Notes: generated by a model not told the origin, from the letters alone. Shown: positions 42,845 through 63,365, numbered from the stretch's first letter. The stretch is 64,000 nucleotides of DNA from Acidobacteriota bacterium (GCA_965209055.1 OZ242374.1:5984001-6048000); one strand, 5' to 3'. Made by a program: numbers and translations.

Positions 42845-42851
42845 TGGAGGG

Positions 42852-42865
42852 GGGACTGTTAGTCC
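42852..42865 (+). repeat. attL core GGGACTGTTAGTCC
   Basis: Identical to 63283-63296. Confidence 0.88.
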
Positions 42866-42893
42866 GGCGCTCTGCCCAACTGAGATACGGGAT
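42855..42893 (-). other. Degenerate tRNA-like 5' half in island left arm (not a complete tRNA)
   Basis: Minus strand ATCCCG-TA-TCTC-AGTTGGGCA-GAGC-G-CCGGA-CTAACAG-T: D-arm plus 5' anticodon stem and 7-nt loop spacing; no T-arm nearby. Confidence 0.6.
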
Positions 42894-42932
42894 TTATCCT
42901 TTATTTTCAATAGTTTAGACCGATTCTCCCCT

Positions 42933-44027
42933 CTAATTGTTCCTCCTATTTCCTGCCCGTTGCCTGTTTGTTTCCGGTTGCGTTTGTGAGTCTTCGTTAG
43001 CCTGTGCCTCCCGAATGCTGGCCAGCGCGTGGGAACTGACGTACCCGGCGTAGCGCATCGTCGTGCTGATGGCCGAGTGCCCCATCAGCTTCTGCACCGT
43101 CCTCACGTCCACCCCCTGCATCAGCCAATGGCTGCACCGGAATCGTCTCAGGTCGTGAAATCCGACCTTCAACCCCACTCGCTCGGCGGCTCGACGTAGC
43201 GGCTTGTCCGGATTCACCCATCTCGTCCCTGTCCGGATGTTGACGAAGACGTAAGGGGTGTTCAGGTAGCGAACCAGCCGGACCAGATATCCGGTGGCGT
43301 ACTTCGACAGCGGAATCTCCCTCGGCTCGTCGTTCTTGGTGAATTCCACCCATAGCAGCCTCCGGGTTAGGTCCACCCGATTCCAGGTGAGCGACAACGC
43401 TTCGCCTTTCCGTATCCCCGTCTCGCCGATCACCGCAATCATGGCTTGCAGGTAAGGATTGTCCACCGCCTCGACCAGGTCGCGGAACTGTTGAACCGTC
43501 AAAGGCCGGAAGACCTTCTTGGGTTCTTTGAGTTTGGGGAACCTCACCAGCGGGTGCGTGTCCACTTCCCCGCACTCCAGCGCGTAGGAAAACAGCTTGC
43601 TGATGGCGGCAATGTCGCGGTTCACCGTGGCCGGTTGCACCTGCTTCTTCCTCTGGGCGACGTAGCGGTACAGGTCCTTGCGTTGGAACTCCTTCAGGGG
43701 AATGTTCCCCAGCATGGCGTTGAGACTCTTGAACGAGAGCGCATAGCGACGCCGGGAGCGCATGCGAGGTTTGCAGTACTCCTCGAAGAAACGCTCGTAG
43801 AAGCTCCGGACCGTCCAGATCTTGCGGTTCCCGCCGACAAGCTCCTCCTTGAGCTGCTTCCAGGTGCCATCCAGGATGCTCGACTCGATTCGTGTTTGAA
43901 GCGCCTGTGCGCTCCGGTAGTTGGGGGCGTACATTCGAAGCCGACCGGATCCGTTCGGCCAGTACTTGCTGACGACGAAACGTCGTCTCCCCCGGCGATC
44001 CTTCACCTTGTAGATGCCCATATGCAT
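42933..44027 (-). CDS. Tyrosine recombinase / phage-type integrase
   Basis: ATVNRD, ETGIRKGEA (R), TKN (K), FHDLRR (HxxR), LMGHS, TTMRY (Y); RBS AAAGGAGG (start 44027 or 44021). Confidence 0.95.
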   Translation of the reverse strand: MHMGIYKVKDRRGRRRFVVSKYWPNGSGRLRMYAPNYRSAQALQTRIESSILDGTWKQLKEELVGGNRKIWTVRSFYERFFEEYCKPRMRSRRRYALSFKSLNAMLGNIPLKEFQRKDLYRYVAQRKKQVQPATVNRDIAAISKLFSYALECGEVDTHPLVRFPKLKEPKKVFRPLTVQQFRDLVEAVDNPYLQAMIAVIGETGIRKGEALSLTWNRVDLTRRLLWVEFTKNDEPREIPLSKYATGYLVRLVRYLNTPYVFVNIRTGTRWVNPDKPLRRAAERVGLKVGFHDLRRFRCSHWLMQGVDVRTVQKLMGHSAISTTMRYAGYVSSHALASIREAQANEDSQTQPETNRQRAGNRRNN

Positions 44028-44341
44028 CTCCTCCTTTCTGGATCCGGGTTCTTCGCCGTGAGGAGAATCCTACCACGGCTCCAAGAGAATCAGCATAGGC
44101 GTTCAAGTCTTCCAAGGCGAAGACGCGGTGGCCGGCGGGGTCAATCTGGACCGTGGACCGGTTGCAGCCCGTGTGTTAGGGGTGACCTGTCCCTGGTAGC
44201 TTGAAATCCCTGGAACTTGGAAAATCCATCTGCCATCATGAGAGCCTAATGGGCTGTCACGGTGATGGAAACAAAGCAGTGACTGCGGCCGCAATCCCAT
44301 TGGATCTTCCATAGAAGGCGGCTTTTGGGTGTGGAGGAAAA

Positions 44342-44710
44342 ATGCGCCTGAATTGGATCAAATGTGTGGAAGACAAGTGGTGCCCGTTTCTTACAGTGAA
44401 TCTTGATCATCCTCACTTTGACGGTCTCGGTGGCGTCTACGTCATCTGGCACGGAGGTAATGGCTGGCACGGAGGCAGCGACCCGTGGACGGTTTACGTG
44501 GGGAGTGGACATATTTCCGCTCGTCTCGCGGAACATCGAACGAACCCAAACCTTCTCAAGTATTCCGACCGAGGGCTCTTTGTTACTTGGGCAATGGTCG
44601 CCCCGGAAAGTCAGAGGGGTGTAGAGGCGTATCTGGGTGATGAACTGGGCCCGCTGGAGTCCATTCGTCTTCCTGACGCTACTCCTATTCCTGTCAATCT
44701 TCCGTGGTAG
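44342..44710 (+). CDS. Small GIY-YIG-like nuclease
   Basis: GGAGGA RBS; GVYVIW...VYVGSG..I..RL..H...VE pattern. Confidence 0.7.
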   Translation: MRLNWIKCVEDKWCPFLTVNLDHPHFDGLGGVYVIWHGGNGWHGGSDPWTVYVGSGHISARLAEHRTNPNLLKYSDRGLFVTWAMVAPESQRGVEAYLGDELGPLESIRLPDATPIPVNLPW

Positions 44711-44720
44711 ACCGTTTCGC

Positions 44721-45580: not shown

Positions 45581-46423
45581 ATGCCGCATACTGTTTGTGA
45601 CCTCCGCTCTTGGGAGGAGTTAGAGGAGGAACTGAAAAAACTCCAGGAGCACTCGCTTGAACAGCGCCACTCAGCACCCCTGACGTTTCTGTATCGTGGG
45701 CAGGAAAACTCTTGCTGGCCCGTAAAGACAACGCTTGAACGATGGGCGGAGGGGCGAGAGGTTTCGTTCCGGCGATACTATGAGTTCATTTACCGAGTAA
45801 AGCCAGAGCTTGAGAGCTTCACCGAAGAGCGTTGGGATATCCCGGACCCCCAAGAGGTAGAACGCCTGACAAAACGTCGCGAGCCTTTTTCTTGCGATAC
45901 GGCGAAAGCCTTCAAAACTTGGGGGCTAGTTGGGAGCTACATGGTGCACTTGCGCCACCATGGGTTTCCCTCACCTTTCCTCGATTGGACTCGTTCACCC
46001 TATGTTGCGTCCTTTTTTGCTTTCCGGCAACCGATCAGGGATGCGAAAAAGGTGTCTCTTATCGTTTATCGAGAAATGCGAAATCCATCCGAGCATCCCA
46101 AGGTCTACTCTAGTGACTGGCCGGAAATATACATCCTGCCAAAGCTATACTCACCAACGCACCGAAGGCACTTCCTTCAGCAGGCGGAGTACACATTTTG
46201 CGTACAAAATAAGAAGAGCAAATGGCACTTTGGGCCACATGAGAGTGCACTCGGGCGGGGCGATTCCAATGTAGACGTCATTTGGAAGTTCAATCTCCCC
46301 GTAACCGAACGCCTGAAGGTTTTGAAGTTACTTGACAGGTCTAACATGAATGCGTTCTCGCTGTTTCAGTCTGAGGAAAGCCTAATGGAGACTGTGGCGT
46401 TTCGAGAACTGGATTGGCTGTAG
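45581..46423 (+). CDS. FRG domain protein
   Basis: FLYRGQ..W..KTTLER, LRHHGFPSPFLDWTRSPYVASFFA, R..QQA.Y, L...NMNAFSLF. Confidence 0.85.
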   Translation: MPHTVCDLRSWEELEEELKKLQEHSLEQRHSAPLTFLYRGQENSCWPVKTTLERWAEGREVSFRRYYEFIYRVKPELESFTEERWDIPDPQEVERLTKRREPFSCDTAKAFKTWGLVGSYMVHLRHHGFPSPFLDWTRSPYVASFFAFRQPIRDAKKVSLIVYREMRNPSEHPKVYSSDWPEIYILPKLYSPTHRRHFLQQAEYTFCVQNKKSKWHFGPHESALGRGDSNVDVIWKFNLPVTERLKVLKLLDRSNMNAFSLFQSEESLMETVAFRELDWL

Positions 46424-46695
46424 TTTCCATGGAAGCGTGGCGCTCACGGGGCCAGGGACAAGGATCAGCATCGAGCCACACGGAAACACGGGTCAGAAGA
46501 ATTTCACCCGGGATGTTGGCAAGTCCCCATTCGGTTCTGCCAAGTCGACACAGTGCCCTATTGGCACAAGTGCGAGTACTTGAGACACCGACCAGTTTGG
46601 GTGGACACGGACTGCCAAGACAATCCTCCAACAGAATGGCGACGCTTAGAGCTAAGTCGTACGAGGACTGGATTTTGGCATGCACGGTCGGATGG

Positions 46696-46862
46696 TGAAA
46701 GGCAATGAGATCGGGGAAAGCGGATTTGTGAATCACCGGGACCGCCATTTGTGAATCCACCCTGCGTGTCCCATTCACACTCCCGGATCGGCACGAGACC
46801 CCCTTTGCGCCCTGCCGAAACGAGTCCTCGTCAGCCTTTATGCCGGCCAAGTGGCAGTCGCC
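46696..46862 (+). repeat. ~165-bp direct repeat, copy 1
   Basis: ATTTGTGAATCACCGGGACCGC..TTTGTGAATCCACCC..TGTCCCATTCACA..TCCCGGATCGG..GAGACCC..CTGCCGAAAC..TCAGCCTTT..GCCAAGTG, aligns with 57162-57330. Confidence 0.85.
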
Positions 46863-47163: not shown

Positions 47164-47955
47164 TTACGGGACCGTCTGGGACCTTCCCCATCCCTCGTCA
47201 GCAAGACGGGTGCAGTTTAGCTCCTCGACACGGAGACGCCACTGGGGCATCACCCGGTCCAAGATCTCCCGGAATCGGTCGTTGTGCGTGGGTTCGACGA
47301 GGTGGGCCATCTCGTGCACGACGACGTACTCGATGCAGGAAAGCGGCTTCTTGGCCAGTTCGGAGTTGAGCCAGATGCGGCGGGCCGGAGCGTTGCAGGT
47401 TCCCCAGCGTGTCTTCATGCGCCGGATGCGCCAGTCGGCCACCCGCACCCCGATCCTCGGCTCCCACTTGGCGGTCCACGCCGGGATACGCTCGCGGAGC
47501 CGAGCCCGGTACCATGCGTACAGCATCGCCTCGCGGGAATCGCGACCGGTAGGAGGACGGACCCGCATTTCGATCCAGGCGTTGCCCCTCACCCGCACGC
47601 CGGTCGGGCCGGGCGATTCGATCACGTCCAGCCGGTAGCGCCGGCCCTCGAAGTAGTGACTCTCGCCGGACACGAACTCGCGGCGGGACTGGCGCTCCTG
47701 CTTCAGGAACCCGTCGCGTTTTCGCCGAATCCAGGCCAGCCGCGATATCACCGCCAACCGCACGGCCTCGTCGTCGAGGCGCAACGGGGCGGCAACGCGC
47801 ACCCGTCCCTCCGGGGGGTAGACGCCCAAGTGCAGGTGCTTGATGTCCTTGCGGACGACCTCGACGGAGATGCCACCGACCTCAATGTGCGCGGATAGAA
47901 CCGATCTCCGGGAACTGGCGGGGCGGGAGGTCGGCCCGTGAAAATCAGTATTCAT
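47164..47955 (-). CDS. M48/YgjP-like zinc metalloprotease-domain protein (type I R-M associated)
   Basis: MKTRWGTCN, IWLNSEL, YVVVHEMAHL..HNDRF; overlaps hsdR stop. Confidence 0.88.
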   Translation of the reverse strand: MNTDFHGPTSRPASSRRSVLSAHIEVGGISVEVVRKDIKHLHLGVYPPEGRVRVAAPLRLDDEAVRLAVISRLAWIRRKRDGFLKQERQSRREFVSGESHYFEGRRYRLDVIESPGPTGVRVRGNAWIEMRVRPPTGRDSREAMLYAWYRARLRERIPAWTAKWEPRIGVRVADWRIRRMKTRWGTCNAPARRIWLNSELAKKPLSCIEYVVVHEMAHLVEPTHNDRFREILDRVMPQWRLRVEELNCTRLADEGWGRSQTVP

Positions 47956-50900
47956 TCCGTGCCTTCACGATGTCGAAGGTCGCGGCCGCGTTGGCCCCGT
48001 AGGCACCAAGCGCCTCGTGGATCGCCTTCCGGATGAGCGTCTCCTTGATCGGGTGGCCGCGCCACCCGTCCATCCGAGCCTTCCGAACCGCCTGATCGAC
48101 GGCCAGCGCGACGGACTCGCGTGTGCCGGTCCCAGGTTCAGTTATCGTCATCGGCGGCTCTTCCGGGAGGTTGTCGTAGATCGCGCGCAAGGCTGCGGTG
48201 TCGATGTTCGCTGGACGCGACCCGCCGTCCTCGCCGCACTTCACCTTCGCGGCCAGCGCGCTCACCCGCTTCAGGTAGTCTCCGTACGCGATCACCTCCT
48301 CGCGCCGTTGCCGGATCAACTCGTCGAGCAGCCTGGACATCCGTTCGTAGTACTTCGGGTTGACGGACATCTCATCCACGATCAGGCGCCGGACGTTGTT
48401 CTCGATGGTTTCCGCGACGGCGCGGCGGTTCCCCCGGATCCCGTCGGGCAGCGAGTCTACGGCGTCCCCGGCGCGTTCGACAAGGAGATCGACGAGCGTC
48501 ATGTCGTCGAAGGTGGAAAGAACCCCGGAGTCGTCGGCCCGGATGTAGGCGTCCAGAAGATGCCGCATCGCGGGCTCGAACATTTTCAGGTCCACGAAGT
48601 CGCCGCTGTTCAGTTTGACCTCTTGACGGACCTTCTCGTAGTGGTCCACTTCGTCCCGCGTGTCCCTCCGTTGGGCCTCCGTGTAGCCCGCCGCGATCAT
48701 CTCGTTGGCCAGGTCCGCGTAGCTGCGGAGGAACGCGGCGACGAGCCGGTAGAGGGTGAGGCGCTTGCGTTCGTTCGCGGCCAGTTGGCGAGCCGCCTCC
48801 TCACCGTCGCCCGTGCCGTCCTGGCAGAAGTAGCGCAGGTACGCTGCGGTATCGCGGGGCGGGTCGACCCCTTCGCAGAGCGCCCGAACCGCTTCGCGGG
48901 CCTCTTCCAGCCGCTCCCGCCCCCGTTCCAGGCGATCCGTCAACAGCTCTTCTACATCCTCGCGGCTGTAGCCCTCGAAGGCTTCGCCCGTGTAGTCCTG
49001 GATCGCGCCCTCCAGCGAGCGGAAGAGGTCCCTGTAGTCGATGATGTGGCCGTACTCCTTGTCCTCGCCATCGAGGCGGTTGACCCGGCAGATCGCCTGA
49101 AACAGAGCATGGTCCTGCATCTTCTTGTCGATGTAGAGGTACGTCGCGGGCGGGGCGTCGAACCCGGTCAGCAGCTTGTCCACGACGATCATGAGCTTCA
49201 TTTGCGCTGGGTCATTCACGAACCGTCGCTTGACCTCCTGCTCGAACTCATCGGCCTTGTGCATGGCCGTGTCCTCGGACTCTCCGAAGTGGTCTGCGAG
49301 CATGCGCCGGTAGACCTCGTACTTGAGCAGTTTCTCGGCCGGACCCTCCCCGGGGTCCTCGCCCGCGATGTCGCTGGCAGCCGGCTGGTATGACGTGATG
49401 ATCGCGCACCTGCCCTTCAGGTCGGTCGCACTGAAGCGCTGAAAGAAGCGGCAAGCTGCGTAGATGCTGTCGGACACGAGCATGGCGTTGCCCCGCCCGC
49501 TTTTCAGCCGGTCGCGCGTTTCCATGTCCATGAGGATGTCGTCCACGATCTTGTCGATCCGTTCGCGCGAACTCGTGACCTTCCGCATCGTGCCCCAGCG
49601 CTGGCGGAGCTGCGCCTTGGCAAGGTCGCTGAGCCCCTGGGTCTTGAGGTCGAACCACTGGTCGATCTTCGCCTCGGAGGTCAGGTGCTGGTCGATGTCG
49701 CGCGCCTCGTAACGCAGGTCGAGTACCACCTTGTCGCGGATCGCCTCGTCGTACTTGTAGGTGTGGATATACGGGCCGAAGGTCTCGATGCTGCGCGGCT
49801 TGTCGGACTTGAGCAGCGGCGTTCCCGTGAAGCCGATCAGGGTGGCCTCGGGCAGGAGTTTCTTCATCGCGCCGTGGAGTTTACCGGACTGTGTGCGGTG
49901 GCATTCGTCCACGAAGACATAGATGTCTCCGGCGGGGCGAAAGCCGCCGGAGATGTGGGCGCGAAGGTCGCTCACATAGCGGTCGATGTCGCCCTCTTCC
50001 GAACGGCCGAACTTGTGGACGAGCGAACAGATCAGCGACTTGGCGGGATCGCGAAGGGCCTCGGCAAGGTCCGCACCGCTCTTCGTGCGGTGGATGTCCT
50101 CGTCCACGCCAAGAAAGACCTTCTCGATCTGCTCGTCGAGTTCCTTGCGGTCGGTGATGACGAGCACGCGGCCATCGGTAACCTTCTCGCGGATCCACTT
50201 CGCGAGCCACACCATCGTGAGGCTCTTCCCGCTGCCCTGGGTGTGCCAGATGATCCCCCCATCCCGTCGCTTCACATGGGATTGCGCTGCCTTCACGCCG
50301 AAATACTGGTTGTGACGGCAGATCTTCTTGGTGCCCGCGTCAAACACCACGAAGTCGTGGACCAGTTCGAGGAGACGGCCCGGTGCACAGAGGTCGGCGA
50401 GTTCTTGGAGAAGGGACGAAGCGGCGTTCGACGCGGGTGAAGACGCGGCAGCCTCCTTCCAGCGCAGCCAGTACTTTTCCGGTGTGCCGACCACGCCGTA
50501 GCGGAGCCCCTGCGTGTCGTTGCCCGCCATCACCAACTGCACGGTGGTAAAGAAATGCGGGATGAAGTGCTTCTTCTGGTTGGCCAGGTTCTGGCGGATC
50601 CCCTCGGCCACCGACACGGTCGAGCGCTTGAGTTCGATGACCCCCAGCGCGATGCCGTTCACGTAGAGGACGAGATCGGGCCGCTTGGTGTTCCGGCCGC
50701 TGACCGTGACCTCTTCGGCGATGGCGAAGTCGTTGGCGAACGGATTGCTCCAGTCGATCAGATCGACGGTAACTGCCTTCCTGCCGACTCCGGGACTCAC
50801 CTTCACGCCGTACCGGAGGAGGCCGTAAACGTTCCGGTTAGCTTCGTAGAGCGTGCGGCTTCCGCCCAGTGCGGCGGCTTGCTCGAGCTTCGCAATGGCC

Positions 50901-51082
50901 TTCGCGATCAGACTCGCGGGATGGCCGCCGCGCTTGAGAAAACGGGTGAGGATCCGGGACTCCACGTTGCAGTTGCCGTCCCGGTCCTGCCAGTCGCCAA
51001 GGTAACGGTAGCCGAGACTGTCCCGGAAGAGCGCGATGACCCGCCGTTGCGTTTTGATCTCCTTTTCGCCGACGGGGGTCAT
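47945..51082 (-). CDS. hsdR: Type I restriction enzyme R subunit
   Basis: RPDLVLYVNGIALGVIELK, WHTQGSGKS, DECHR, GFTGTP, VVDKLLTGFD, QAICRVNR; ATGA overlap start 51082. Confidence 0.95.
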   Translation of the reverse strand: MTPVGEKEIKTQRRVIALFRDSLGYRYLGDWQDRDGNCNVESRILTRFLKRGGHPASLIAKAIAKLEQAAALGGSRTLYEANRNVYGLLRYGVKVSPGVGRKAVTVDLIDWSNPFANDFAIAEEVTVSGRNTKRPDLVLYVNGIALGVIELKRSTVSVAEGIRQNLANQKKHFIPHFFTTVQLVMAGNDTQGLRYGVVGTPEKYWLRWKEAAASSPASNAASSLLQELADLCAPGRLLELVHDFVVFDAGTKKICRHNQYFGVKAAQSHVKRRDGGIIWHTQGSGKSLTMVWLAKWIREKVTDGRVLVITDRKELDEQIEKVFLGVDEDIHRTKSGADLAEALRDPAKSLICSLVHKFGRSEEGDIDRYVSDLRAHISGGFRPAGDIYVFVDECHRTQSGKLHGAMKKLLPEATLIGFTGTPLLKSDKPRSIETFGPYIHTYKYDEAIRDKVVLDLRYEARDIDQHLTSEAKIDQWFDLKTQGLSDLAKAQLRQRWGTMRKVTSSRERIDKIVDDILMDMETRDRLKSGRGNAMLVSDSIYAACRFFQRFSATDLKGRCAIITSYQPAASDIAGEDPGEGPAEKLLKYEVYRRMLADHFGESEDTAMHKADEFEQEVKRRFVNDPAQMKLMIVVDKLLTGFDAPPATYLYIDKKMQDHALFQAICRVNRLDGEDKEYGHIIDYRDLFRSLEGAIQDYTGEAFEGYSREDVEELLTDRLERGRERLEEAREAVRALCEGVDPPRDTAAYLRYFCQDGTGDGEEAARQLAANERKRLTLYRLVAAFLRSYADLANEMIAAGYTEAQRRDTRDEVDHYEKVRQEVKLNSGDFVDLKMFEPAMRHLLDAYIRADDSGVLSTFDDMTLVDLLVERAGDAVDSLPDGIRGNRRAVAETIENNVRRLIVDEMSVNPKYYERMSRLLDELIRQRREEVIAYGDYLKRVSALAAKVKCGEDGGSRPANIDTAALRAIYDNLPEEPPMTITEPGTGTRESVALAVDQAVRKARMDGWRGHPIKETLIRKAIHEALGAYGANAAATFDIVKARNEY

Positions 51083-52650: not shown

Positions 52651-53945
52651 TGGCACGGTCCGTTTTCGTAGACAGCATCCTGGATCGGAAGTCGAATCGA
52701 ACCGGTAAGAAGCTGCTGCATCATGCCCTGCTTGAGGGCGCGCGTCTTGTCGCGACGCCGGTCTAGCGCGGCGATCTCCGCGTCCATGTCTGAGAGGGCG
52801 GCGGCGATAGCCCGCTGCTCTTGGGGGGGCGGGAATCGAAGCTCCGCAGAGGCGATATGGGCGCGGTTGGTGGCGTACACTTTCGTGCCGGCCGCGAGCC
52901 TCCGGAGATGATCCCGGAATCGGGGGAAAAACTGCAAGTACGCCTTGAAGCCGTCGGCGAGCACCGCCTTATTGAACCTCACCGCGATGGTGTGCAGTCC
53001 GGATACGAGTTGGTGACCCTCGCTCCCCATGATCTCGATGGACTTTCCCACACCTCCAACGTCCTCGGAAGCGTCAACGAACACGAGGTCTCCGTCGCTC
53101 AACCGATCAAGCCTTCTAGCATAATCCTTCGCCAAGGCCGGCAAAGCGGTGGCCGTCGGGTCAAGGTACACACGGGCGGATGTATGGATGTCTCCATAAT
53201 GGAGGTACTTCACTCCACCGCCGACTTCGCCGTTAGGCGCGAGGTAAGAGCGTGGGAAGCTACCATGCCGAAGGAATCGGAGATGGTTCCCCAGCCGCCT
53301 CGTCTCCCACTCACCTCGGAACCCCGGCAGCCGGGTCCTGCCGGTCAGAAGTTGCTGCATCGCCGCCTGCTTGATTGCCCGCTTCTTGGCGATCAGCGCC
53401 TCCAGCGACCCGATCAGGGCGTCTACGTCCATGAGGACGGCGGCGATGGCCCGTTGCTCGTGGAGGGGTGGGAGGGGGATAACATGCTGATGAACGTCAT
53501 TTCGATTCAGCGTTGGAACCCCGGAACCGGCGAGAAACCGAGCAACGCGGATATGGGTGTACAGGTAATAGATGAATCGCGGATCGTTGCGACGATAGGA
53601 TACAACCCAGAGAGCCGTGTTGTGTGGCCAATAGTCCTCCGCCACGAAGTGTACCTTGCCGATTGTTCCAGATCGTCCCGTCACCACACCTGGGCCCTTC
53701 ACCATAGCGCGGTTGTGGCGTCGCAAAATTCCGTTGGAATAGACAACGGGGTAACGTCCTGATCGGACTTGCGATGTAGGGAGATCGAATCCTCGCTGTA
53801 AGGGAGCAACATCACGGAGCGCCTTCGAGGCCCAGCCCGCCGGAAAGACGACCGCCTCGGAGCTTTGGCACCGTACGGCTTCGACCGGCGCATCCGCCGC
53901 ACGGTTCGAGGCAATGGCTATGCTGCGCCCCCGTCCTTCACTCAC
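52647..53945 (-). CDS. hsdS: Type I R-M specificity subunit
   Basis: Two TRDs with conserved PPLHEQRAIA...KQAAMQQLLTG and PPPQEQRAIA...KQGMMQQLLTG. Confidence 0.93.
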   Translation of the reverse strand: MSEGRGRSIAIASNRAADAPVEAVRCQSSEAVVFPAGWASKALRDVAPLQRGFDLPTSQVRSGRYPVVYSNGILRRHNRAMVKGPGVVTGRSGTIGKVHFVAEDYWPHNTALWVVSYRRNDPRFIYYLYTHIRVARFLAGSGVPTLNRNDVHQHVIPLPPLHEQRAIAAVLMDVDALIGSLEALIAKKRAIKQAAMQQLLTGRTRLPGFRGEWETRRLGNHLRFLRHGSFPRSYLAPNGEVGGGVKYLHYGDIHTSARVYLDPTATALPALAKDYARRLDRLSDGDLVFVDASEDVGGVGKSIEIMGSEGHQLVSGLHTIAVRFNKAVLADGFKAYLQFFPRFRDHLRRLAAGTKVYATNRAHIASAELRFPPPQEQRAIAAALSDMDAEIAALDRRRDKTRALKQGMMQQLLTGSIRLPIQDAVYENGPCQ

Positions 53946-54035: not shown

Positions 54036-56482
54036 TCATGTCGAGAGCCCCATTCGCCTAAGGTGACCCTCGACCATGGTGCCGTAGTCGTCAACCTGAC
54101 GCACGAGCTCCGGCAGCGCCTCGGAATACCGCGCTTCAAGCACCGTGATCCGTTCCACGAGCCCGTTCGTCAGGCGGTCCACCTGCCGGCCGATCCCGTC
54201 CTCCAAGCTGGCCATCCACTTGCCGCGCACCACCATGTTGGCGACCTCTGATGGAGTCAGAGCCACGTATCGCACTAGTATTTCCGCATCAAGCAAGGCT
54301 TGCGCATCCTTCGCTGCTTTCTTCGCCTTGGCTTCCGCCTTCATGAGATCCAGGCAGACCTCCAACGCGTCGCGCTCGTCGGGATTCCCGGAGCCACCGC
54401 GAATCTCCTTGAGCCGAGCCCTTACGGCCGTCTGCGTCACCTTCCCGGTGTCCGTCGTGGCACCGTGCAGCAGCCCGTCCTGCCCGTGTTCTCTTCTACA
54501 AACGCCTCCACCTCGCGCCCGATCTTCTCCTGCTCGCCCAGCAGGGCCTCCACCTCGCGCTGCTCGTCCGCGAAGTAGCGGCCGGCCACAAGATCGGGTG
54601 GAAGCAGGTCCATCTTGTACTTCGTGCGCCTGACCGTCAGGTCGGGAGACTCACCCGCTTGCCGTTTCCCGACCAGCACTCGCGGCCGCGCCGCCTCCGA
54701 CCAACCGCCGGTCACCACTAGGTACAGGTCGTCCTGCATGACCTCGTCCCAGTAGTCCATCAGACATTGGTAGACATCGTAGGGGTCGATGAGTGGAAGA
54801 TCGGCGAAACGTCCCAGTAGATCCTCGGATAGCTTCCCTATCAATGCCCTCGGGGATTCGCCCTCTCCGAGTCCGTATAAACGGGACTCATGCTCACGCC
54901 ACCAATCGTCGAAAGCGCTCCACACTCGCTCCCGGTACGCCGTGAATTCATCATGTCCGAGAACAACTACTCTGACCTCGTCCGGAGACCTGCACGCTTC
55001 GCTGTATCCCGGACGGCCACCCGGCACGAACAACGCCCGCCGCAAGCCGGGTAACACCTTCCAATAGCGGTCGAGAGCGTCGATGTCGGGGTCAGGGATC
55101 CCTCCATGGAGGTGCGCGCCGAGGTCGTGAAGATCCTCCGGCTCGCCGGAGTCGATGTAACGGGGGATGTTAAGGTTGTAGTCGTTTGCCTCGCTGGCGA
55201 TCTCGTCGAGTGGCACCATCCGCGCGTAGCCGGGCGTGTCGCGCTGGTCGTTGAAGACATCGACGATGCGGTGAATGTCGCGCTCGCGGAGACGGTTCTT
55301 GGCGCCGTCCTTACGAAAGCCCCCGCTGGCATCCACCATGAAGATGCCCTTGCGGGTGGCCGCGTCCTCCTTGTCGATCACAACGATGCACGCCGGGATA
55401 CCGGTGCCGTAGAAGAGGTTGGCGGGCAACCCGATGACACCCCGGATAAGTCCGCGCCTGACGAGATTGCGGCGGATGCGAGCCTCGCGGTTGCCGCGGA
55501 AGAGTACCCCGTGCGGGAGGATGATCGCACCCTTGCCCGTGCTCTTGAGCGATGCAACGAGGTGAAGGAGGAAGGCGTAGTCGCCATTTTTCGCGGGCGG
55601 GATGCCGTACTCGAATCGGCGGAATTCGTCGTGGTCCGGATCGAGACCGTTCGACCACGCCTTCGTGGAAAACGGAGGATTGGCGACGGCGAAATCGAAT
55701 CGCTTCAGGCGTCCGGGGCCGTCGGTGAATCGCGGTGCGGCCAGTGTGTTGTCGCGCTTGATCTCGGCTGCCACGTTACCGTGGAGGATCATGTTCATGC
55801 AGGCCATGGTCCACGTCGCGACATCCATCTCCTGACCGTAGATCGTCAGCCCGTTCGGTGCTTCGTCCGCCGCCTTAATGAGGAGTGACCCGGAGCCACA
55901 GGTGGGGTCATAGACGGCGCGGTCGAGGCCGGTGTCCGCGTCGATCCCGACCACCCGGGCCATGATGCGTGAGACCTCGGCAGGGGTGTAAAACTGCCCC
56001 TTGCTTTTGCCGGACTGCGTCGCAAAGTGCCGCATGAGGTACTCGTATGCGTCGCCAAGGAGGTCGTCGCCCTGGGCGCGATTCGCCTGGAAGTCGAGCC
56101 GCTCGAAGATCCCGACCAGCTTCGTGAGCCGGTCTGTCATCTCCCGGCCCCTGCCGAGCTTGCTCTCGTCGTTGAAGTCCGCTTGGTCGATCACGCCCTT
56201 GAGGAGGAAGTCGTTGGTGTCGGCGAGCTTCCGAATAACGACGTTGATGCCGTCGCCGATTTCCTTGCTCCCCTTGAGTGCCACCATGTCCGCGAATCCG
56301 CCCCCGGGCGGCACCTTGATCTCGGAATACTCGTCGTCTGCGCCCGAGTACTTGTCCGAGACGTACTTCATGAACAGCAGCGTCAGGACGTAATCCTTGT
56401 ACTGCGAGGCGTCCATGCCGCCACGGAGCTGGTCGCAGCTCTGCCAGAGCGAGGCGTGCAGTTGGGACTTGCGCAGGGCCAT
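54036..56482 (-). pseudogene. hsdM: Type I R-M methyltransferase, frameshifted near 54482
   Basis: LRGGMDASQYKDY, GQFYTP, YDPTCGSG, ANPPF, YNLNIPRY. Frame breaks after EENTG; adding one base continues DGLLHGATTDTGKVTQ into ORF 54036-54440. Confidence 0.88.
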
Positions 56483-57007
56483 GGTCGGCTCAACTTCCTG
56501 GCGCGGGCGGGCGCCGTGCGGGCACTGGACCACAACCTTCGAGCCGGCACAGGGATCGGAGGAAACGAGTCGCCCCGCCCCGGTCGGAGAACGGCGCCCC
56601 GCCGGGCCGGATCAGACGCTGGGACGTGTCTCCCCCGAGGACGTCGCGTAACAGGTCGGCCACTGCCCGACGGGAATTCGGAACCTCGGTCTTGGCCATG
56701 CCTCAATTTAGCATGTCGGGCCGGGCCAGTCCGGTGCGGCTTCCGTGTCGGGATCGGAGCAGGGCGTCAGACGCCGGCTGCGGCGATGACAAGCTGCACC
56801 CGCTTCTTCGTGGGCACGAACAGCACTGCCAGCAGTCCCAGCCCGATCAGTGCGTATTGAACGCGGACCGCCGAAGCGAGCACCGCCAGGCAGGCAGACC
56901 ACCACGCCGTCCAGGCATCTTGCGCGGACTGATGCGCCATCAAGGCGAGCACTGCCAGCAGCAGTGCCCAGGAATCTTCGCAGGAGCCTTCCCGCCAGGG
57001 ATATTTT

Positions 57008-57106
57008 GGACGGGAGCGACCCCACCAGGGAGTGTTGCGCAGATGTGAATTGCGCAACACCCCCGCGCCCGCACCGGGCAGCAAAAAGGGGGGGTCGCTC
57101 CCGTCC
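57008..57106. other. Nested inverted-repeat structure
   Basis: 16-bp perfect IR GGACGGGAGCGACCCC (57008-57023) / GGGGTCGCTCCCGTCC (57091-57106) enclosing GTGTTGCGCA-9nt-TGCGCAACAC (57032-57060). Confidence 0.8.
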
Positions 57107-57161
57107 ACCTCCATTTTCCCCGTGCGGCCACCCGGTGGCCGGAAATGGGGCCGCAACTGAC

Positions 57162-57330
57162 TGAAAGGAAACAAGCTCGGGGAGAGTGCATTTGTGAATC
57201 ACCGGGACCGCTTTTTGTGAATCCACCCCCCTTGTCCCATTCACATCCCGGATCGGGCGCGAGACCCTCTTTTCGCACTGCCGAAACAGCCCTCAATCAG
57301 CCTTTGCGACTGCCAAGTGCGTTCACCGCC
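57162..57330 (+). repeat. ~165-bp direct repeat, copy 2
   Basis: Aligns with 46696-46862. Confidence 0.85.
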
Positions 57331-57949
57331 AATCACGACCTGGAAGGAGTAACTTTCCGCCGTTGTTTGCCGCTCGACCGACTGCTTAAGTGCGGCCGTA
57401 ACCCGGCCGTAGGAGTTGAGCAGGCCTTGGTCGGTCGAGTGCCCCGGATCGACACGGACGAAGACGGTCCGGTCCGCATCGACGGCAAGCGGCGGCTTGA
57501 GCGCGAAGTCACGTAGGGTCTTCCCCACCGCCCCCGGCACACGCGCCGAGGAAGCCGTTGCCAGTGGACAGCGAGTGTGTCAGGGTTCGAGCGTTGCCCT
57601 GCGGTGCTGGCCAAAGATCGACACGGCCTTAAGAGTTTCAAGAAGATTCGGCATGGCCGGAAGCTAACACCGAAAGCTGACAATCGGGTCTTGTTCCCGG
57701 AGGGCCAGACGACGACGGCCCGCGCGGGTTTCTTCCCTTGCCCCCCCTTCGGTCCCTACGGTTCAGCCCGGATCGGGCAGGGGTCCCCATGGGGTCATGC
57801 GGCGTTGACAAGACAGGTCATGAGGAGGGCCAGAAGGATCAGCGCACTTGCGAGCTTGAGAGCGGTGGACCAATCGTTGAAGGGCCGACGGGGGCAATAG
57901 GTGCAGACCGTTTCATTTGGGGATTATATACGAAAGTTCCAGATTCCCC

Positions 57950-57978: not shown

Positions 57979-58001
57979 CTCCTTGTAAGTAAGGAGATCG
58001 T

Positions 58002-58976
58002 ATGGCTTTCAAGGCACCCGGAAAACATTTCAGAGAAGGTCTTTCAGTCAAGCAGTTCTTCCGTCTCTTCCCGGATGACAAGGCTGCCGAGGCATGGTTC
58101 GCCAAGGAACGCTGGCCGGAAGAGGTCTGCTGCCCCTACTGCGGATCGGTCAAGGTCAACACCAAGACCAATCACAAGTCCATGCCCTACCGGTGCAAAG
58201 AGACGAAGTGCCGCAAGTGGTTTTCGGTCAAGACGGGAACGCCGATGCAGTCCTCGAAGCTGGGCTATCAGGACTGGCTCTATGTCCTGTACTGCATGGC
58301 GACGAATCTGAAATCGGTGTCCTCCATGAAGATGCACCGAGACCTGGAGATCACACAGAAGTCGGCCTGGTTCGCCATGCACCGCGCCCGCCACGTCTGG
58401 AACACGGACCCCGAGGAGCGGTTTGAGGGGCCGACAGAGGCCGACACCACGCACATCGGCGGCAAGCGAAAGAACAAGCCGTTGAAGGTTCGGGCCAAGC
58501 TGGAAGGCCGGGGAGCCGTGGATATGACCACGGTGGTCGGCATCAAAGACCGCAAGACCAATCAGGTCCGGGCGAAGGTCGTGCCGGACGAGAAGGGAAT
58601 CACGCTCCGGGGTTTCGTCTACGATCACACCGAACCGGAGGCGAAGGTCTACACTGACGACGCATCCGCCTACGAGCGGCTGCCGAATCATGATTCCGTG
58701 AATCACTCCCGGCTGGAATACGTCAAGGGTGAAGTCCACACCAACGGGATCGAGTCATTCTGGTCCATGCTCAAACGCTCCCATACCGGGACGTTCCACA
58801 AGCTCTCCCCGAAGCACTTGGACCGGTATGTCGGAGAGTTCTATGGCCGGCACAATATGCGCGGCAAGGGCACTCTGTCTCAACTGGCGGAGATGGCTGA
58901 CCGGCTGATCGGGCAGAGACTCCGATACAGCGACTTGACCGCCGATAACGGGCTCCCCTCCGGCGCCAGAAGCTAA
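58002..58976 (+). CDS. IS1595 family transposase
   Basis: Zn ribbon CPYC...C...C, FSVKTGT, TQKSAW..HR, EADTTHIGG, VYTD, HTNGIESFWSMLKR, HLDRYV.EF..RHN. Confidence 0.95.
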   Translation: MAFKAPGKHFREGLSVKQFFRLFPDDKAAEAWFAKERWPEEVCCPYCGSVKVNTKTNHKSMPYRCKETKCRKWFSVKTGTPMQSSKLGYQDWLYVLYCMATNLKSVSSMKMHRDLEITQKSAWFAMHRARHVWNTDPEERFEGPTEADTTHIGGKRKNKPLKVRAKLEGRGAVDMTTVVGIKDRKTNQVRAKVVPDEKGITLRGFVYDHTEPEAKVYTDDASAYERLPNHDSVNHSRLEYVKGEVHTNGIESFWSMLKRSHTGTFHKLSPKHLDRYVGEFYGRHNMRGKGTLSQLAEMADRLIGQRLRYSDLTADNGLPSGARS

Positions 58977-59057
58977 CTGAGGAAAAGCTGTGGGAAGGTC
59001 GTTGGGAAACCTGTTAAGTTCTTGTGTATCAACTGTTTACGGACGATTTTTGTTGAC

Positions 59058-59951
59058 ATGCCAAGTCTAGCAACCTACCCTGACGCCGTGTTAACGGAGT
59101 TCCCGGTCTCTCGACTTCCTGCCGTCAATGTCGCGCAGGTTCCTCAGCGTAGCCCGTTGAGGTATCCCGGGGGGAAAACGTGGCTGATCCCGCACATTCG
59201 GGAATGGCTCAAATCCGCAAGCGCGGAGATTCTGATTGAGCCCTTTGCCGGAGGCGGAATTGTCTCCCTGACAGCCGTGATGGAGGAACTGGTCGAACAA
59301 GCCGTGATGGTCGAGATTGACCATGATGTCGCGGCGTTCTGGCACGCGGCCCTGAGAAACGGACGCCGGATGGCGGATCAGATCCAAGAGTTCAATCCCA
59401 CCAGAGAGACGCTTATCGAGTGGGAAACTAGCCGCCCGCAGTGCGTCAATGAGCATGGCTTCCAGACCCTGGTATTCAACCGCACTCGACGCGGCGGGAT
59501 CCTCGCTTCGGGAGCGTCCTACATGAAGCAGGGAGAGAACGGGCGGGGAATACTGTCTCGCTGGTATCCCAAGACACTGGCCCGGAGACTGGCCGAGATC
59601 GAACGCCACGCAAGCAAGATCATCTTTTGCGAGGGGGATGGCCTCAAGCTACTCCCGCCTCTATTGCAGGGATGGGGAGATCGGGCCGCCGTGTTTCTCG
59701 ATCCTCCGTACACGGCTGGCGGGAAACGGGCGGGACGGCGCCTCTACACGGATCACCAAGTGGACCACGCCGAACTATTTTCCATACTGGCATCGTCCGA
59801 CGCCGACTTCCTGATGACCTATGATCTATCACCCGAAATCGTGGAGCTGGTCGAGCAACACGGGTTTCACGCCGTCGCCGTGGTGATGAAGAACACCCAT
59901 CACAACCGCATGGCGGAAATCATCATCACTCGGGAAAGCCTCTTCGAATGA
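59058..59951 (+). CDS. Dam-like (alpha class) amino DNA methyltransferase (start uncertain)
   Basis: SPLRYPGGK, EPFAGGG (motif I), FLDPPY (motif IV), LMTYD. Confidence 0.9.
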   Translation: MPSLATYPDAVLTEFPVSRLPAVNVAQVPQRSPLRYPGGKTWLIPHIREWLKSASAEILIEPFAGGGIVSLTAVMEELVEQAVMVEIDHDVAAFWHAALRNGRRMADQIQEFNPTRETLIEWETSRPQCVNEHGFQTLVFNRTRRGGILASGASYMKQGENGRGILSRWYPKTLARRLAEIERHASKIIFCEGDGLKLLPPLLQGWGDRAAVFLDPPYTAGGKRAGRRLYTDHQVDHAELFSILASSDADFLMTYDLSPEIVELVEQHGFHAVAVVMKNTHHNRMAEIIITRESLFE

Positions 59952-60799
59952 TCCGCTACGGGATCTCGGAGTGGTTCGGGCGTCCGTTCCTGTCCCTGAG
60001 TCCAAGTCAGAGACAATCCCTCGCCAGAGCTGCATTGCGCCACGATCCAGTCCCGCCCTGCCCCTTTCGTCGTGGATTGCCGGACTGCACCAAGAGAGGC
60101 GGAGTCTGTTCCATCCAGGAGTATCAGGGGGAAGGAAGCCGGATTGGAACGCCTACCGGTAATCCGGTGAGCGTGTGTCCGTACCGCTTCGAGGAGCGGG
60201 ATATCTCGGCTCTATGGCTGGCCGAGATCGTGGACTTTGGCGAGGTCTACATGGCTCGGGAAGTGCCCTTCATGGAGGGTGTGACCACCGGGAAACCCGC
60301 AGGGAAGATTGACTTGGTCCTGTCGAAAGACGAGGTGGCGTCAGAATGGGTCGGGCTGGAAATCCAGGCCGTCTACTTCTCTGGAAAGGCAATGGACAAC
60401 GACTTCAACGTCCTGCTCACTGATTCCGGTGATTCGCCCCCTATGGCCACGAAGAGCCGGAGGCCGGACTGGAGATCGTCCACAAAGCGGCTGCGATATC
60501 AGTTGGAGGTAAAGGTTCCGACGCTGCGAACGTGGGGAAAGAAACTCGCGGTTTCGGTGGACCTTCCCTTCTTCAACTCTATCGGGGGACCAAGTTCTAC
60601 ACCATCACACGATCTGAACGAGGGTGACATTCTCTGGATCGTTCCCCTGATTGACCTGGACCGCGGCTTGGTCCGCCACCACTGGGAAGTCCTTTCCCTG
60701 GAGGCATCCAGCCGCAAGCTGCTAGATGCCGCGCCCGTTAAACGTCGAGACTTCGAGTCTTACCTGCGCCGGAAGCTGGCACGACTGGAGACGCAATGA
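59948..60799 (+). CDS. NotI-family restriction endonuclease
   Basis: Four Cys (CPF, C.K.GGVCS, VCPYRF), IDLVL, LEIQAVYFSG, RRPDWRSS.KRL..QL..K; ATGA-coupled to the MTase. Confidence 0.85.
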   Translation: MIRYGISEWFGRPFLSLSPSQRQSLARAALRHDPVPPCPFRRGLPDCTKRGGVCSIQEYQGEGSRIGTPTGNPVSVCPYRFEERDISALWLAEIVDFGEVYMAREVPFMEGVTTGKPAGKIDLVLSKDEVASEWVGLEIQAVYFSGKAMDNDFNVLLTDSGDSPPMATKSRRPDWRSSTKRLRYQLEVKVPTLRTWGKKLAVSVDLPFFNSIGGPSSTPSHDLNEGDILWIVPLIDLDRGLVRHHWEVLSLEASSRKLLDAAPVKRRDFESYLRRKLARLETQ

Positions 60800-61005: not shown

Positions 61006-61435
61006 GCCGGAATCTGGAACTTTCGTATATAATCCCCTTTCATTTTGCCAATAGAGATTCTCCATTCGGCCATAGCTTCCCATGCGGCGTCGAGATCGTT
61101 GCGATCATCGGACAGTTCCACGGCGAACTGTTCATTGGCCGCTTTGTATTCAGGACCGTGAGCCCATTCTTCATTCATACGGTCAGCAATGGAATTACCC
61201 CGTTCAGTGAGTAGCTCTTCCTGCTTCGCCAGAAAGTCTTTCGTCTCTTCGAATATTGCCAGGTGAAGTTGCTCGGTATTCCCTTTGCGAATGCAAAGCT
61301 GTATGGTGTCGCGCACGATCTGTTGGGCAGTCATTTGTTTCTCTCCCCCCGCGCCCCCCTCTCTTCCAAGGGAAAGTTGAGTCGTGAGTTTTTCGTGGTC
61401 CATATCTGTCCTTGGTAGTACCTATCAGGGGCCGC

Positions 61436-61954
61436 CTAGTCCGCCGTCCCAAAACTCACCCACTTCCCCTCGTGGCAGTAGTAGGCAACAGCGGCCTTGT
61501 CGAGGAAGTAATCGTTGATGGCATCGTGGGTGCGCCTCTCGGGCAGTCCCTCGTCCATCTTGAAAAGAGGACCGACGTCAGGGGGGAGTGAACTGATGAC
61601 GCACGAGTACACCATTCCGAACTCACCCCACCCCTGAGTGCAACCGCTATCCGGACTCGCCCTGTCCAATACGCGGTTGCACTGCGCTCGTCCTCCCCAA
61701 AGGACGATGGTCTCCGACTGCCCATCCCGTGAACAGATCGCTGCCCAATCGGTCTGACCGGGCGCGGCGAACTCGCCGGAAATGATGTTCAGGGGTCTGC
61801 CAGACTTGAACGTGAAAAACGAGTGGGGCTGCGGGATCATGCAGCCCATTTCGTAGAATTCCTCTCTGATGTAGGCAGGCACCTTCTCGAAATCGAGCGG
61901 CGACATGTACTTGATATTTGGTGTCAACACCAGCAACGGCAGGAGCAGCAACAT
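61436..61954 (-). CDS. Putative exported Cys-containing protein (candidate immunity)
   Basis: Short hydrophobic N-terminus, several Cys, NIISGEFAAPGQTDWAAIC; 13 bp downstream of peptidase gene. Confidence 0.6.
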   Translation of the reverse strand: MLLLLPLLVLTPNIKYMSPLDFEKVPAYIREEFYEMGCMIPQPHSFFTFKSGRPLNIISGEFAAPGQTDWAAICSRDGQSETIVLWGGRAQCNRVLDRASPDSGCTQGWGEFGMVYSCVISSLPPDVGPLFKMDEGLPERRTHDAINDYFLDKAAVAYYCHEGKWVSFGTAD

Positions 61955-61967
61955 GAGGGCGTTCCCC

Positions 61968-62747
61968 CTATTTCGTCAGGTGCCAGTGGTCGGGTTTGCC
62001 AGGACCAGACGGATGCACGGCCACCGTGAACCCCAAGCTCCTGGCGGTACTCTCGAAGTAGGTTCTTTCCGTGCTGGACATTTCGCTTCGGTTCATGTCC
62101 ACGTTATGACCCGTTTGGTGGGTGATGTGCGGTGTCGTCCAGTTGTCGTTGATATCGAATAGGCCACCCGTCGGTAGGCTCATGTCGTTCACATGGAGGG
62201 GCTTGTCGAACCTCCCATAGAATGCGCGAGCCAGAGCCTTTATGCCGTTCACCAGAGTGGCGGTGCCGTAGTGGTTGCCAGGGTGTTCGGTCGTGCTCCC
62301 TTGAAGCGTGATGTAGGTGGAACCCAACAGCGGCGTAAGACCGATTAGAGCCACATTGTTGAAATCGGTGTCTATCGTGCCGTCACTGAACACCCCTCTC
62401 TGCCGGATCATACCCGCTGCGGAAGGTGCTGTGAACGTCACCTTCACGTTCTGAGGGTTTGGTCCGTAGAGCGTGATTGAGGATGGACTGACCGACCCGA
62501 CTGGTCCCCCTGAGTGGTGATGGCCACCTGTGTTGGGCAACCGGTCCAGGCTGATATCCACGCTGGCCCCCTCCAGGCCACTGACGTACCAGAGATTGGT
62601 GCCGCCTGGGTCGCAGGTCTTGGTAGCGCCCTGCGGTACTCGCTTGTAACTCTCTCTGATTTCGTAGGGAGAGATTACTGCGCAGGGTTTAGAGACATCG
62701 ATGATTTCTGGGTGGTTGTAGTTTGCAACCTCGGACCTTTCGGACAT
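61968..62747 (-). CDS. MepA/M74-like murein endopeptidase-domain protein
   Basis: HYGT, NDMSLPTGG.F, PHITHQTGHNVD (H-x6-D), C-terminal HWH zinc motif; GGAGG RBS. Confidence 0.7.
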   Translation of the reverse strand: MSERSEVANYNHPEIIDVSKPCAVISPYEIRESYKRVPQGATKTCDPGGTNLWYVSGLEGASVDISLDRLPNTGGHHHSGGPVGSVSPSSITLYGPNPQNVKVTFTAPSAAGMIRQRGVFSDGTIDTDFNNVALIGLTPLLGSTYITLQGSTTEHPGNHYGTATLVNGIKALARAFYGRFDKPLHVNDMSLPTGGLFDINDNWTTPHITHQTGHNVDMNRSEMSSTERTYFESTARSLGFTVAVHPSGPGKPDHWHLTK

Positions 62748-63282
62748 TCCTTGGTTCCTCCGATCTGCGGTTCTAGTTATCTAGAGAGGCGCCTGGCCCC
62801 AACAGCGGTGCCGGTGCTCCAAGAACTTCGAATGTAATACTGTTCTGGATTTGTACATATCTTGAAGTGCCCAACCGGACAACGCCTCTCCTAAGACCGA
62901 AATGCGGCGGCGGACGTTGTGGTGAACTTTTGGCCTTGGCGAACCGCACGCCGTAGCAGGAGTGCCGAAACCTCCCCGCCGCCGGGACCCGAAATCTATC
63001 AAGGACTATTTCAAGACGCAAAATAGACTGATGACGGAGGGGGGAGGGAAGCTTGTTAAGTTCAATAATTAATCCCCGATCGACACAGCACCATGTGTTC
63101 CGAATCTGGGGGACAAGAGAAAACGGGAAGAGGAGTCAGTATTCGAGAGCCAATGCTGCTGCCTGTTTGTTGCCTGTTCAGGACGTCGAACGTTGGGAGT
63201 CAACCACTTTACTGATTCGGCGAAGAACCCGGTAATCCATTGAAAACGTTAATGTTCGGTAGTCTTTGACTGTGGAGCAATC

Positions 63283-63296
63283 GGGACTGTTAGTCC
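63283..63296 (+). repeat. attR core GGGACTGTTAGTCC
   Basis: Identical to 42852-42865. Confidence 0.88.
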
Positions 63297-63365
63297 CCCC
63301 GTCTTCTTCCGTATTGTTGTGCGATTCGGACGCGGGAAAGCGTAGAGCGGGGACTGCCGTTTCCC

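Follow-up and report, generated by a model that had tools for sequence, protein, structure and literature searches.

An island of 20,445 bp spans positions 42852-63296 of a 64,000-nt stretch of DNA from an Acidobacteriota bacterium (GCA_965209055.1, OZ242374.1:5984001-6048000; the whole stretch is referred to here as the window, and positions are counted from its first letter). In our reading this island is very probably an integrative element that a tyrosine integrase, probably of the lambda type, placed in the loop of a hairpin resembling a repetitive extragenic palindromic (REP) sequence. It also appears highly likely that the integrase family ancestrally used the anticodon loop of tRNA-Arg genes and was retargeted to genus-wide hairpin repeats through repeated changes in the overlap of its own attachment site (attP). 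The genome, here G000, is a single contig of 6,077,182 bp. The related records used for comparison (cited as G001 and so on) are labelled Acidobacteriota metagenome-assembled genomes, and the sequence-bearing runs are mostly labelled sponge metagenomes.

The motif GGGACTGTTAGTCC is present on both flanks of the island. A motif search of the window returned exact matches at 42852-42865 and 63283-63296 on the plus strand, the direct repeat reported in an earlier note on this DNA, and at 38747-38760 on the minus strand; the three matches obtained at no more than one mismatch compare with 0.01 expected, and three were reached in 0 of 100 shuffles. The left junction (attL, 42849-42865, plus strand) reads ...TAA-T-GGA-GGGGGGACTGTTAGTCC/ggcgctc and contains the 5' half of the host hairpin, GGGGGGACT, together with the first copy of the 14-bp repeat; the GGAGGG upstream of it is a flank common to other copies of the repeat. 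The right junction (attR, 63283-63300, plus strand) reads ...caatc/GGGACTGTTAGTCCCCCC-GTCTTC and contains the second copy of the repeat and the 3' half of the hairpin, AGTCCCCCC. Both junctions are identical over exactly 14 bp. Rejoining the host flanks gives GGGGGGACT-GTT-AGTCCCCCC (GGAGGGGGGACT-GTT-AGTCCCCCCGTCTTC), a perfect 9-bp stem with a 3-nt loop, which begins 4 bases past the stop codon of an S15/PepX_C peptidase gene. This gene ends at 42844 and is convergent with a minus-strand amino-acid permease gene that runs from 63366, and ARAGORN called no tRNA in the window, so that the junctions and the tRNA search both agree with the earlier description of a perfect hairpin restored between convergent genes where no tRNA lies. 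The inverted, uninterrupted copy with similar flanks described in the same note was also found, its interval (38745-38760) having been drawn 2 nt wider than the exact match; on the minus strand it reads ...CTGGAGGA-GGGACTGTTAGTCC-CCTTCGGACCCCGGACGCGGGGG, and a second hairpin of another repeat family adjoins it. Both hairpin copies in the window, at the island site and at the empty copy, are intergenic. GC content is 53-55% over 44-47 kb compared with 60-67% in the host flank at 30-43 kb. Folding of the hairpin and junctions gave small energies, with z values of -0.25 to -1.09 from pieces too short to be informative.

Across the whole genome, GGGACTGTTAGTCC occurs in 44 exact copies and in 59 copies at no more than one mismatch, with 0 for the reversed-pattern control, which bears out the proposal that the target is a dispersed repeat. 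The exact copies comprise 14 at the ends of 7 type A elements (the window's included), 16 at the ends of 8 type B elements, 2 unpaired type B ends and 12 uninterrupted hairpins with host sequence on both sides. The 15 complete elements at this motif measure 2.7 to 21 kb and carry integrases 91-100% identical to the window's, beside the same end; about 130 nt are conserved at each end, and the two ends are unrelated to one another. Together with the 12 empty exact sites, these sister elements agree with the earlier expectation of many landing sites per genome. Types A and B are one element in opposite orientations relative to the hairpin, their attP cores differing by a flipped triplet (GTT/AAC) and one neighbouring base; the GTT loop originally described is right for the hairpin at the window site, but 7 of the 15 elements (type A) read AAC as their loop.

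Two of these elements, each at its own locus, show 100% identity across 2781 bp and another two share 2982 identical bases, which points to recent movement. The sequence of the flanking repeat does not vary among the 15 sites. Because their ends are unrelated and this repeat is invariant, the elements do not read as insertion sequences or transposons, which would be recognised by terminal inverted repeats and variable target-site duplications. The hairpin itself, a short, extragenic and multi-copy palindrome, reads as a REP-type sequence; classical enterobacterial REPs have a higher copy number than this repeat. After the hairpin there often comes a copy of another repeat family, GCGGGGGTTAACAACCCCCGC, and the two form a compound unit (window 38700-38746 and many other loci of G000).

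In two relatives the island's two flanks adjoin. At the orthologous locus of G001, the peptidase stop codon is followed by T-GGAGGGGGGCCCGTTCGTCCCCCC-GTCTTCGTCCGTGTTGTTGTGCGATTCGGACGCGGG, a variant hairpin with the same permease flank and no island, in which GGAGGGGGGCCCGTTCGTCCCCCC is followed by GTCTTC as at the right flank in the window. The orthologous locus of G008 likewise has a variant hairpin, GGAGGGGGCCTGTTAGTCCCC, and no island. The empty peptidase-hairpin-permease site anticipated in the earlier note is therefore present in both, albeit with variant hairpins, and other relatives have different hairpin repeats at the peptidase-permease spot. The repeat and the elements also occur independently of one another: G001 has 18 exact copies of GGGACTGTTAGTCC and 0 integrase matches at E<=1e-40, and G004 has 11 integrase matches (nine near full length, 79-91% identity) and 0 copies of the motif. 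Since motifs occur without integrases and integrases without the motif, the repeat is best described as belonging to the host, and the elements are not restricted to it.

An alternative is that the hairpin belongs to the elements, as terminal repeats or excision scars, or that mobile hairpins landed beside the islands at a later time. It could draw on the fact that 32 of the 44 exact copies lie at element ends, and on two weak matches in G000 to PF01797 (Y1-transposase, RAYT-like; 30.8 and 23.6 bits against a cut-off of 23, at 1142970 and 3750831), which might mean that the repeats are mobile themselves. Nevertheless, we consider it most improbable. The 18 copies in G001 exist with no integrase, each junction holds one half only of the extended hairpin (GGAGGG on one side, CCCCGTCTTC on the other), the whole hairpin stands at the orthologous uninterrupted sites in G001 and G008, and hairpin variants with other loops occur without elements. 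The first of the two Y1-transposase matches (G000 1142970-1143203) has tandem hairpin repeats as neighbours and adjoins the integrase end of a further family member. At orthologous intergenic sites in relatives, for example in G001, hairpins with other stems and loops were observed, and hairpin repeats seem to be replaced or converted in place. In addition, a 2.3-kb host segment between the sister elements B7 and B8 (G000 6053000-6070000) is inverted relative to G001, G002, G004, G005 and G007; in these five relatives the flank left of B7 is located elsewhere in the genome. Synteny is broken at the points where elements end, a sign that elements may have recombined with one another.

The window's repeat is one of several targets. 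Integrase matches in G000 number 28, of which 26 are close to full length and the other two are pieces of one broken copy. Ten full-length elements outside the first set have conserved arms and a paired conserved far end 7-25 kb away, and they sit in other hairpins such as GGGCGA-TTGGAAA-TCGCCC and GTGGGGG-TAGGAAA-ACCCCCAC. This genome thus holds about 25 complete elements that cover roughly 0.26 Mb, or about 4% of its length. The block of identity between element and target is 14-15 bp for the window's repeat; in the further elements the computed blocks are 11 bp in five, 10 bp in one and exactly 7 bp (TTGGAAA) in one, and for three TAGGAAA elements a 7-bp identity was read by eye, the longest-common-substring script having chosen chance matches there. 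The deduced attP is always GGGA-N7-TCC and the targets are stem-N7-stem, with N7 in relatives being CTTTCCT, TTTCCTA, TTTCCAA, CTTCCAG, TTTCTAG and CTTTTAG. A second target repeat, GGCGATTGGAAATCGCC, has 79 copies in G000 and 7-43 in five relatives, and the same element architecture recurs in four other assemblies. The core site thus has the layout of a tyrosine-recombinase site as read from these alignments, with inverted arms and a 7-bp centre, and we infer that N7 is the overlap. Tyrosine recombinases generally need identity in the overlap (PMC2817482), and in the system of the mv4 integrase a 7-bp exchange region is framed by inverted core sites of 7 bp, in which variation is tolerated (bioRxiv 10.1101/2023.11.06.565760).

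These observations leave next to no probability for the view that a tRNA-targeting island entered a secondary site by chance and only once, the hairpin not being a regular target. Close homologues do use tRNA-Arg genes, as described below, and secondary-site insertion is well known for tyrosine integrases, but 15 complete elements with 91-100% identical integrases share the same 14-bp core in one genome, ten more lie in other hairpin families, and the deduced attP holds the hairpin's own 7-mer instead of the tRNA-Arg loop. The genome-wide census refutes a one-off event.

The origin of this targeting is suggested by the element arms, which between the integrase stop codon and the core read, in the direction of the integrase, ...CCCGTAGCTCAGTTGGACAGAGC-A-CCGGA-N7. 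When the arms were compared by local alignment with positions 1-48 of each of the genome's 68 tRNAs (200 shuffles each), tRNA-Arg(TCT) or (TCG) was the best match for 18 of 18, with scores of 21-29 against a maximum of 17 in shuffles; the window arm matched tRNA-Arg(TCT) positions 3-34 with a score of 21-23 (shuffle maximum 14). The D stem and the overlap are as far apart as the corresponding parts of a tRNA, with N7 falling exactly at anticodon-loop positions 32-38. In the window, the vestigial tRNA-Arg 5' half identified by local alignment (acceptor 3' part, D arm and anticodon-stem 5' strand; 42861-42891, minus strand) runs into the core, whose 7-nt centre CTAACAG stands at the place of the anticodon loop. 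Compared over 13 positions, the hairpin core GGACTGTTAGTCC and the tRNA-Arg(TCT) arm GGACTTCTAATCC have 3 differences; with the host tRNA-Asn arm, CCGG-CTGTTAA-CCGG, the hairpin has only the loop in common. The idea of anticodon-arm mimicry put forward in the earlier note is thus upheld insofar as the site copies a tRNA anticodon arm, but the model is tRNA-Arg and not, as had been proposed, tRNA-Asn.

Homologous integrases are located just upstream of complete tRNA-Arg genes in G003 (83% identity), G010 (71%), G012 (52%) and G020 (49%). Among five more distant homologues examined, four were beside tRNA-Arg and none beside tRNA-Asn, and tRNA-Asn was rejected as the model on this count as well. 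The G003 island, of about 47 kb, splits a tRNA-Arg(TCT) locus and has about 42 nt of the tRNA 5' half (through ...CTTCTAATCC) at both ends; the homology of its far end with those of the elements in G000 extends to the arm motifs. Motif searches within 40 kb failed to locate this far end, which was found by mapping the G000 tRNA-Arg locus onto G003. Because the G003 island duplicates the tRNA 5' half, the attP of the family can be read as carrying that half. A maximum-likelihood tree was built from 35 integrases (34 distinct sequences). It unites the 30 hairpin-targeting members in a single clade (98/92), with G003 as sister, followed by G010, and with G012, G009 and G020 outside. The 13 integrases using the window's repeat also form one clade (98/98), in which orientation types A and B are mixed.

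The integrase gene of the window (42933-44027, minus strand; 364 aa) lies 67 nt from the left core and matches PF00589 (2.8e-26) as well as Int_N and SAM-like N-terminal domains. The protein aligns to solved Xer and phage integrase chains, and R206, K231, H291, R294, H317 and Y326 are all present, which places it, by alignment, in the tyrosine recombinase/phage integrase family (PF00589) with its catalytic residues intact; about 90 residues N-terminal to its core-binding domain are without a family match. A candidate arm-type integrase binding motif, GTTGCCTGTT, is found inside the 3' end of the gene (42959-42968, plus strand), at a distance that is conserved in 15 of 15 sister elements and in the G003 tRNA-Arg island. 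At the far end, two tandem candidate arm-type motifs, TGCTGCCTGTT and TGTTGCCTGTT (63157-63178, plus strand), precede a conserved arm in which GCGAAGAACCCGGTAA and AACGTTAATGTTCGGTAGTCTTTGACT are followed by the core (63220-63282, plus strand) and which has a homologue in the far end of the G003 island. Repeats of the GTTGCCTGTT type recur at both ends of each of the 15 elements, and likewise in the G003 island, some 95-130 nt away from the core, and are candidate arm-type sites to which the integrase may bind. In heterobivalent (lambda-type) integrases, an N-terminal domain binds repeated sites of this kind in the two arms of attP. Another motif, GCGAAGAACCCGG, lies just upstream of the integrase start codon (44041-44056, minus strand; genome position 6028041, minus strand) and is inverted relative to a far-end copy, the pair bracketing the cargo.

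Taken together, these features are consistent with insertion of the element by site-specific recombination into the hairpin loop between the two host genes. The window core would consist of inverted arms GGGA and TCCC around the 7-bp overlap CTGTTAG, and the attP of the element, as deduced from its joined ends, would have to match its partner across this overlap. With the family originally targeting the tRNA-Arg anticodon loop through an attP that holds the tRNA 5' half, the G-rich and C-rich stems of the hairpin may stand in for the anticodon stem. In such a scheme the integrase would bind attP both at its arm-type repeats and at its short core arms, attP would pair with a hairpin whose stems provide G-rich and C-rich inverted arms, and strands would be exchanged across the 7 bp. 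A rare insertion at a partly mismatched overlap, followed by excision, could then yield an attP with a new overlap that prefers the new repeat, a route presumed here by likeness to Sa3int phages. Since the targets are multi-copy, the elements would multiply like insertion sequences. The window repeat is palindromic save for its central triplet, and therefore the same process could flip the orientation of an element. The elements may still be active at present.

Several points weigh against this reconstruction. The cleavage positions are deduced from identity blocks. The tRNA-like arm was called neither by ARAGORN in the window nor by Rfam at E<=0.1 in window 38000-64000 and two sister loci, and because the Rfam scans found no tRNA, the tRNA likeness rests on direct alignment; one 30-bit Rfam match to a plastid untranslated region was taken as chance. 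The integrase of the outgroup G009 has no tRNA in its locus, and island ends were mapped for one tRNA-Arg homologue (G003), the other three being known as tRNA neighbours. The tree is midpoint-rooted with long outgroup branches, so that the direction of change from tRNA to hairpin is likely rather than proven. Type A and B integrases are intermixed in the tree while their arms differ, and recombination between elements would be needed to account for this. No excisionase was recognised, and the 3 small candidate open reading frames (ORFs) of the minimal 2.7-kb elements, in which the non-integrase portion is 1.4 kb, gave 0 Pfam matches at E<=1. Neither a circular attP junction nor an excision product was seen. 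The contigs listed from four assembled-contig runs, compared with a 17-kb sister locus with two elements, stop at the element borders, and 0 of the 15 joints listed, out of 161, crosses an element; contigs of this kind cannot show empty sites or circles. Finally, as G000 is a metagenome assembly with an estimated contamination of 7.4%, the placement of 3-21-kb repeats could be wrong in individual cases.

The last of these points also bears on the possibility that the copies were spread by homologous recombination among the repeats, by an IS1595 transposase or by assembly artefact, with the integrase as a passenger. The window island does carry an IS1595 transposase, and the rearranged synteny around two sister elements in comparison with five relatives indicates that recombination between copies occurs. 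However, this explanation seems very unlikely. IS1595 was seen in the window island only; the minimal elements of 2.7-2.8 kb have the integrase as their sole Pfam-recognisable ORF, and no IS1595 was found among 20 ORFs sampled from six larger sisters. The junctions are base-precise at unrelated loci with 7-15-bp identity to the target, whereas the target duplications expected of transposition would vary and long flanks in common would be required for homologous recombination, and the same architecture is found in four other assemblies. Integrase-mediated insertion into hairpin loops hence remains the reading that we favour.

Of the known systems, the closest to this reading is the minority 5'-fragment type among the anticodon-loop (class A) islands of the Islander database, in which a tyrosine integrase at one end, inverted core arms, a 7-bp overlap in the anticodon loop and arm motifs at both ends are shared with the elements described here. 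Islander lists 159 islands with a 5' fragment versus 3760 with a 3' fragment, and 2083 anticodon-centred attP sites (PMC4383910). The G003 sister lineage is such an island, lying between an intact tRNA and a displaced fragment. The window island, in contrast, has no tRNA at either end, its 14-bp identity is not a tRNA half, target and element are both multi-copy and the tRNA piece in its attP rebuilds nothing, which on its sequence sets it outside the Islander definition.

Attachment-site adaptation after secondary-site insertion is known from the saf mutants of lambda. Sa3int phages similarly alter attP after insertion at secondary sites and then integrate better at the new sites (PMC8649754). 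As in the elements studied here, a new overlap resets the target in these phages with the integrase nearly unchanged; what differs here is a natural spread over at least nine 7-mers (three in this genome, six more in relatives) and over repeat families, with each variant amplified to several copies. Insertion sequences that target REPs (IS1397, IS621, IS1594 and others; PMC3184786) also use a dispersed extragenic palindrome as a multi-copy landing site, but they have DDE or IS110-type transposases and no cargo, unlike the elements here with a tyrosine integrase, att sites and 1.5-24 kb of cargo. phiRv1 of Mycobacterium tuberculosis has a site-specific integrase that uses a repeated chromosomal element as its bacterial attachment site (attB), integrating in the REP13E12 repeat family (PMC9317374). 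In contrast to the elements here, phiRv1 employs a serine recombinase. REP13E12 is a long element in few copies rather than a 20-30-bp hairpin, and this system is not known to have tRNA ancestry. In the literature, of which our coverage was partial and is not proof of absence, no account was found of a tyrosine integrase targeting REP-like repeats.

The integron integrase IntI, likewise a tyrosine recombinase, recombines folded single-stranded attC hairpins without arm-type sites, and its sites are imperfect palindromes that vary widely in sequence. The integrase described here might read little beyond the shape of its target, a G/C-rich inverted repeat around a 7-nt centre, with the overlap alone picking the site; we regard this as unlikely, and are similarly doubtful of the stronger form in which it acts on hairpins that are extruded or single-stranded, in the way that IntI recombines attC. 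Unlike attC, attP in these elements is weakly palindromic (3-4-bp arms) and shares an exact 7-bp overlap with its target, which fits duplex recombination. Were a shape-based choice true, this would be a naturally programmable integrase, with hairpins serving as docking sites across the chromosome and defence cassettes shuffled among dozens of sites, a dispersed counterpart of the integron.

Tyrosine integrases are usually described as tied to one conserved single-copy site, in most cases a tRNA gene. The lineage described here, with members 88-100% identical, would have left tRNA-Arg for several hairpin families, apparently by a change of the 7-bp overlap alone and with the tRNA remnant still kept. 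Such a natural series of integrase and att pairs bears on target choice set by the overlap and on engineered integrases. It also suggests a route by which islands become multi-copy, here to some 25 copies and roughly 4% of the genome, and by which, in an uncultured Acidobacteriota lineage, restriction-modification, Abi and CRISPR-Cas genes could be carried from one to another of many sites on the chromosome. Island-finding tools based on tRNA genes will miss islands in hairpin repeats.

The cargo of the window island includes an FRG-domain protein matching the candidate defence family PDC-S15 (45581-46423, plus strand) and a YgjP-like metallopeptidase (47164-47955, minus strand), followed by a type I restriction operon on the minus strand. 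This operon comprises the restriction subunit HsdR (47945-51946), a DUF4062/HATPase_c_4/winged-helix protein that also has weak PADLOC matches (51079-52656), the specificity subunit HsdS (52647-53945) and the methyltransferase HsdM (54437-56533). The longest HsdR ORF has 288 codons upstream of its family match, overlapping the DUF4062/HATPase_c_4 gene, and because the match covers only ORF residues 289-1310, the true start is probably near 51082. On the plus strand are the IS1595-family transposase, a secondary insertion in the cargo (58002-58976), a D12-class adenine methyltransferase (59022-59951) and a NotI-like restriction endonuclease (59948-60799). Several cargo ORFs of the window are without a family.

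Pfam matches were obtained for 14 of the 20 long ORFs sampled from the six sisters. They include AbiTii, FRG and Abi_alpha in A3; Cas1, Cas3, Cas_GSU0053 and Cas_GSU0054 in A5; an MmeI-like enzyme in A6, which has a second ORF with only sub-threshold fn3; N6_N4 methylase, ResIII helicase and Schlafen/AlbA_2 in B1; and HsdR and HsdM in B4. The element family appears to move mainly anti-phage defence genes (restriction-modification, Abi and CRISPR-Cas). Element A5 (G000 3904155-3925235), 21 kb in length, has a whole type I CRISPR-Cas gene set inside. Element B4 contains three adjacent tyrosine-recombinase ORFs (G000 3379210-3381912; element 5078-7780) that are distantly related to the island integrase and that, from their arrangement, have the "recombinase in trio" layout, carried as cargo.

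A group II intron was found in the integrase gene of sister A1, right after codon 4 (G000 784166-786077; RF02005 160.7 bits, RF00029 41 bits), and its 5' end was met again behind the same codons of the integrase near G000 3708065 and 5308010, which looks like intron homing into the integrase gene. Most elements also share a module of about 150-550 bp in either orientation (window 56986-57530 and 46696-46826, and the far halves of 2.7-3.5-kb sisters), containing a long GC-rich inverted repeat, GGGAGCGACCCCCCC ... GGGGGGGTCGCTCCC. It had no Rfam match at E<=0.1 in the scanned loci named above; a hairpin-rich stretch of about 150 nt within it is equally conserved in all six frames in a six-frame comparison, and the module is probably non-coding. 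Lastly, ARAGORN called seven tRNA-Leu(TAA) genes in G000, unusually many copies, one of them within A3 (2104898-2104985), and these copies may ride on another repeat.

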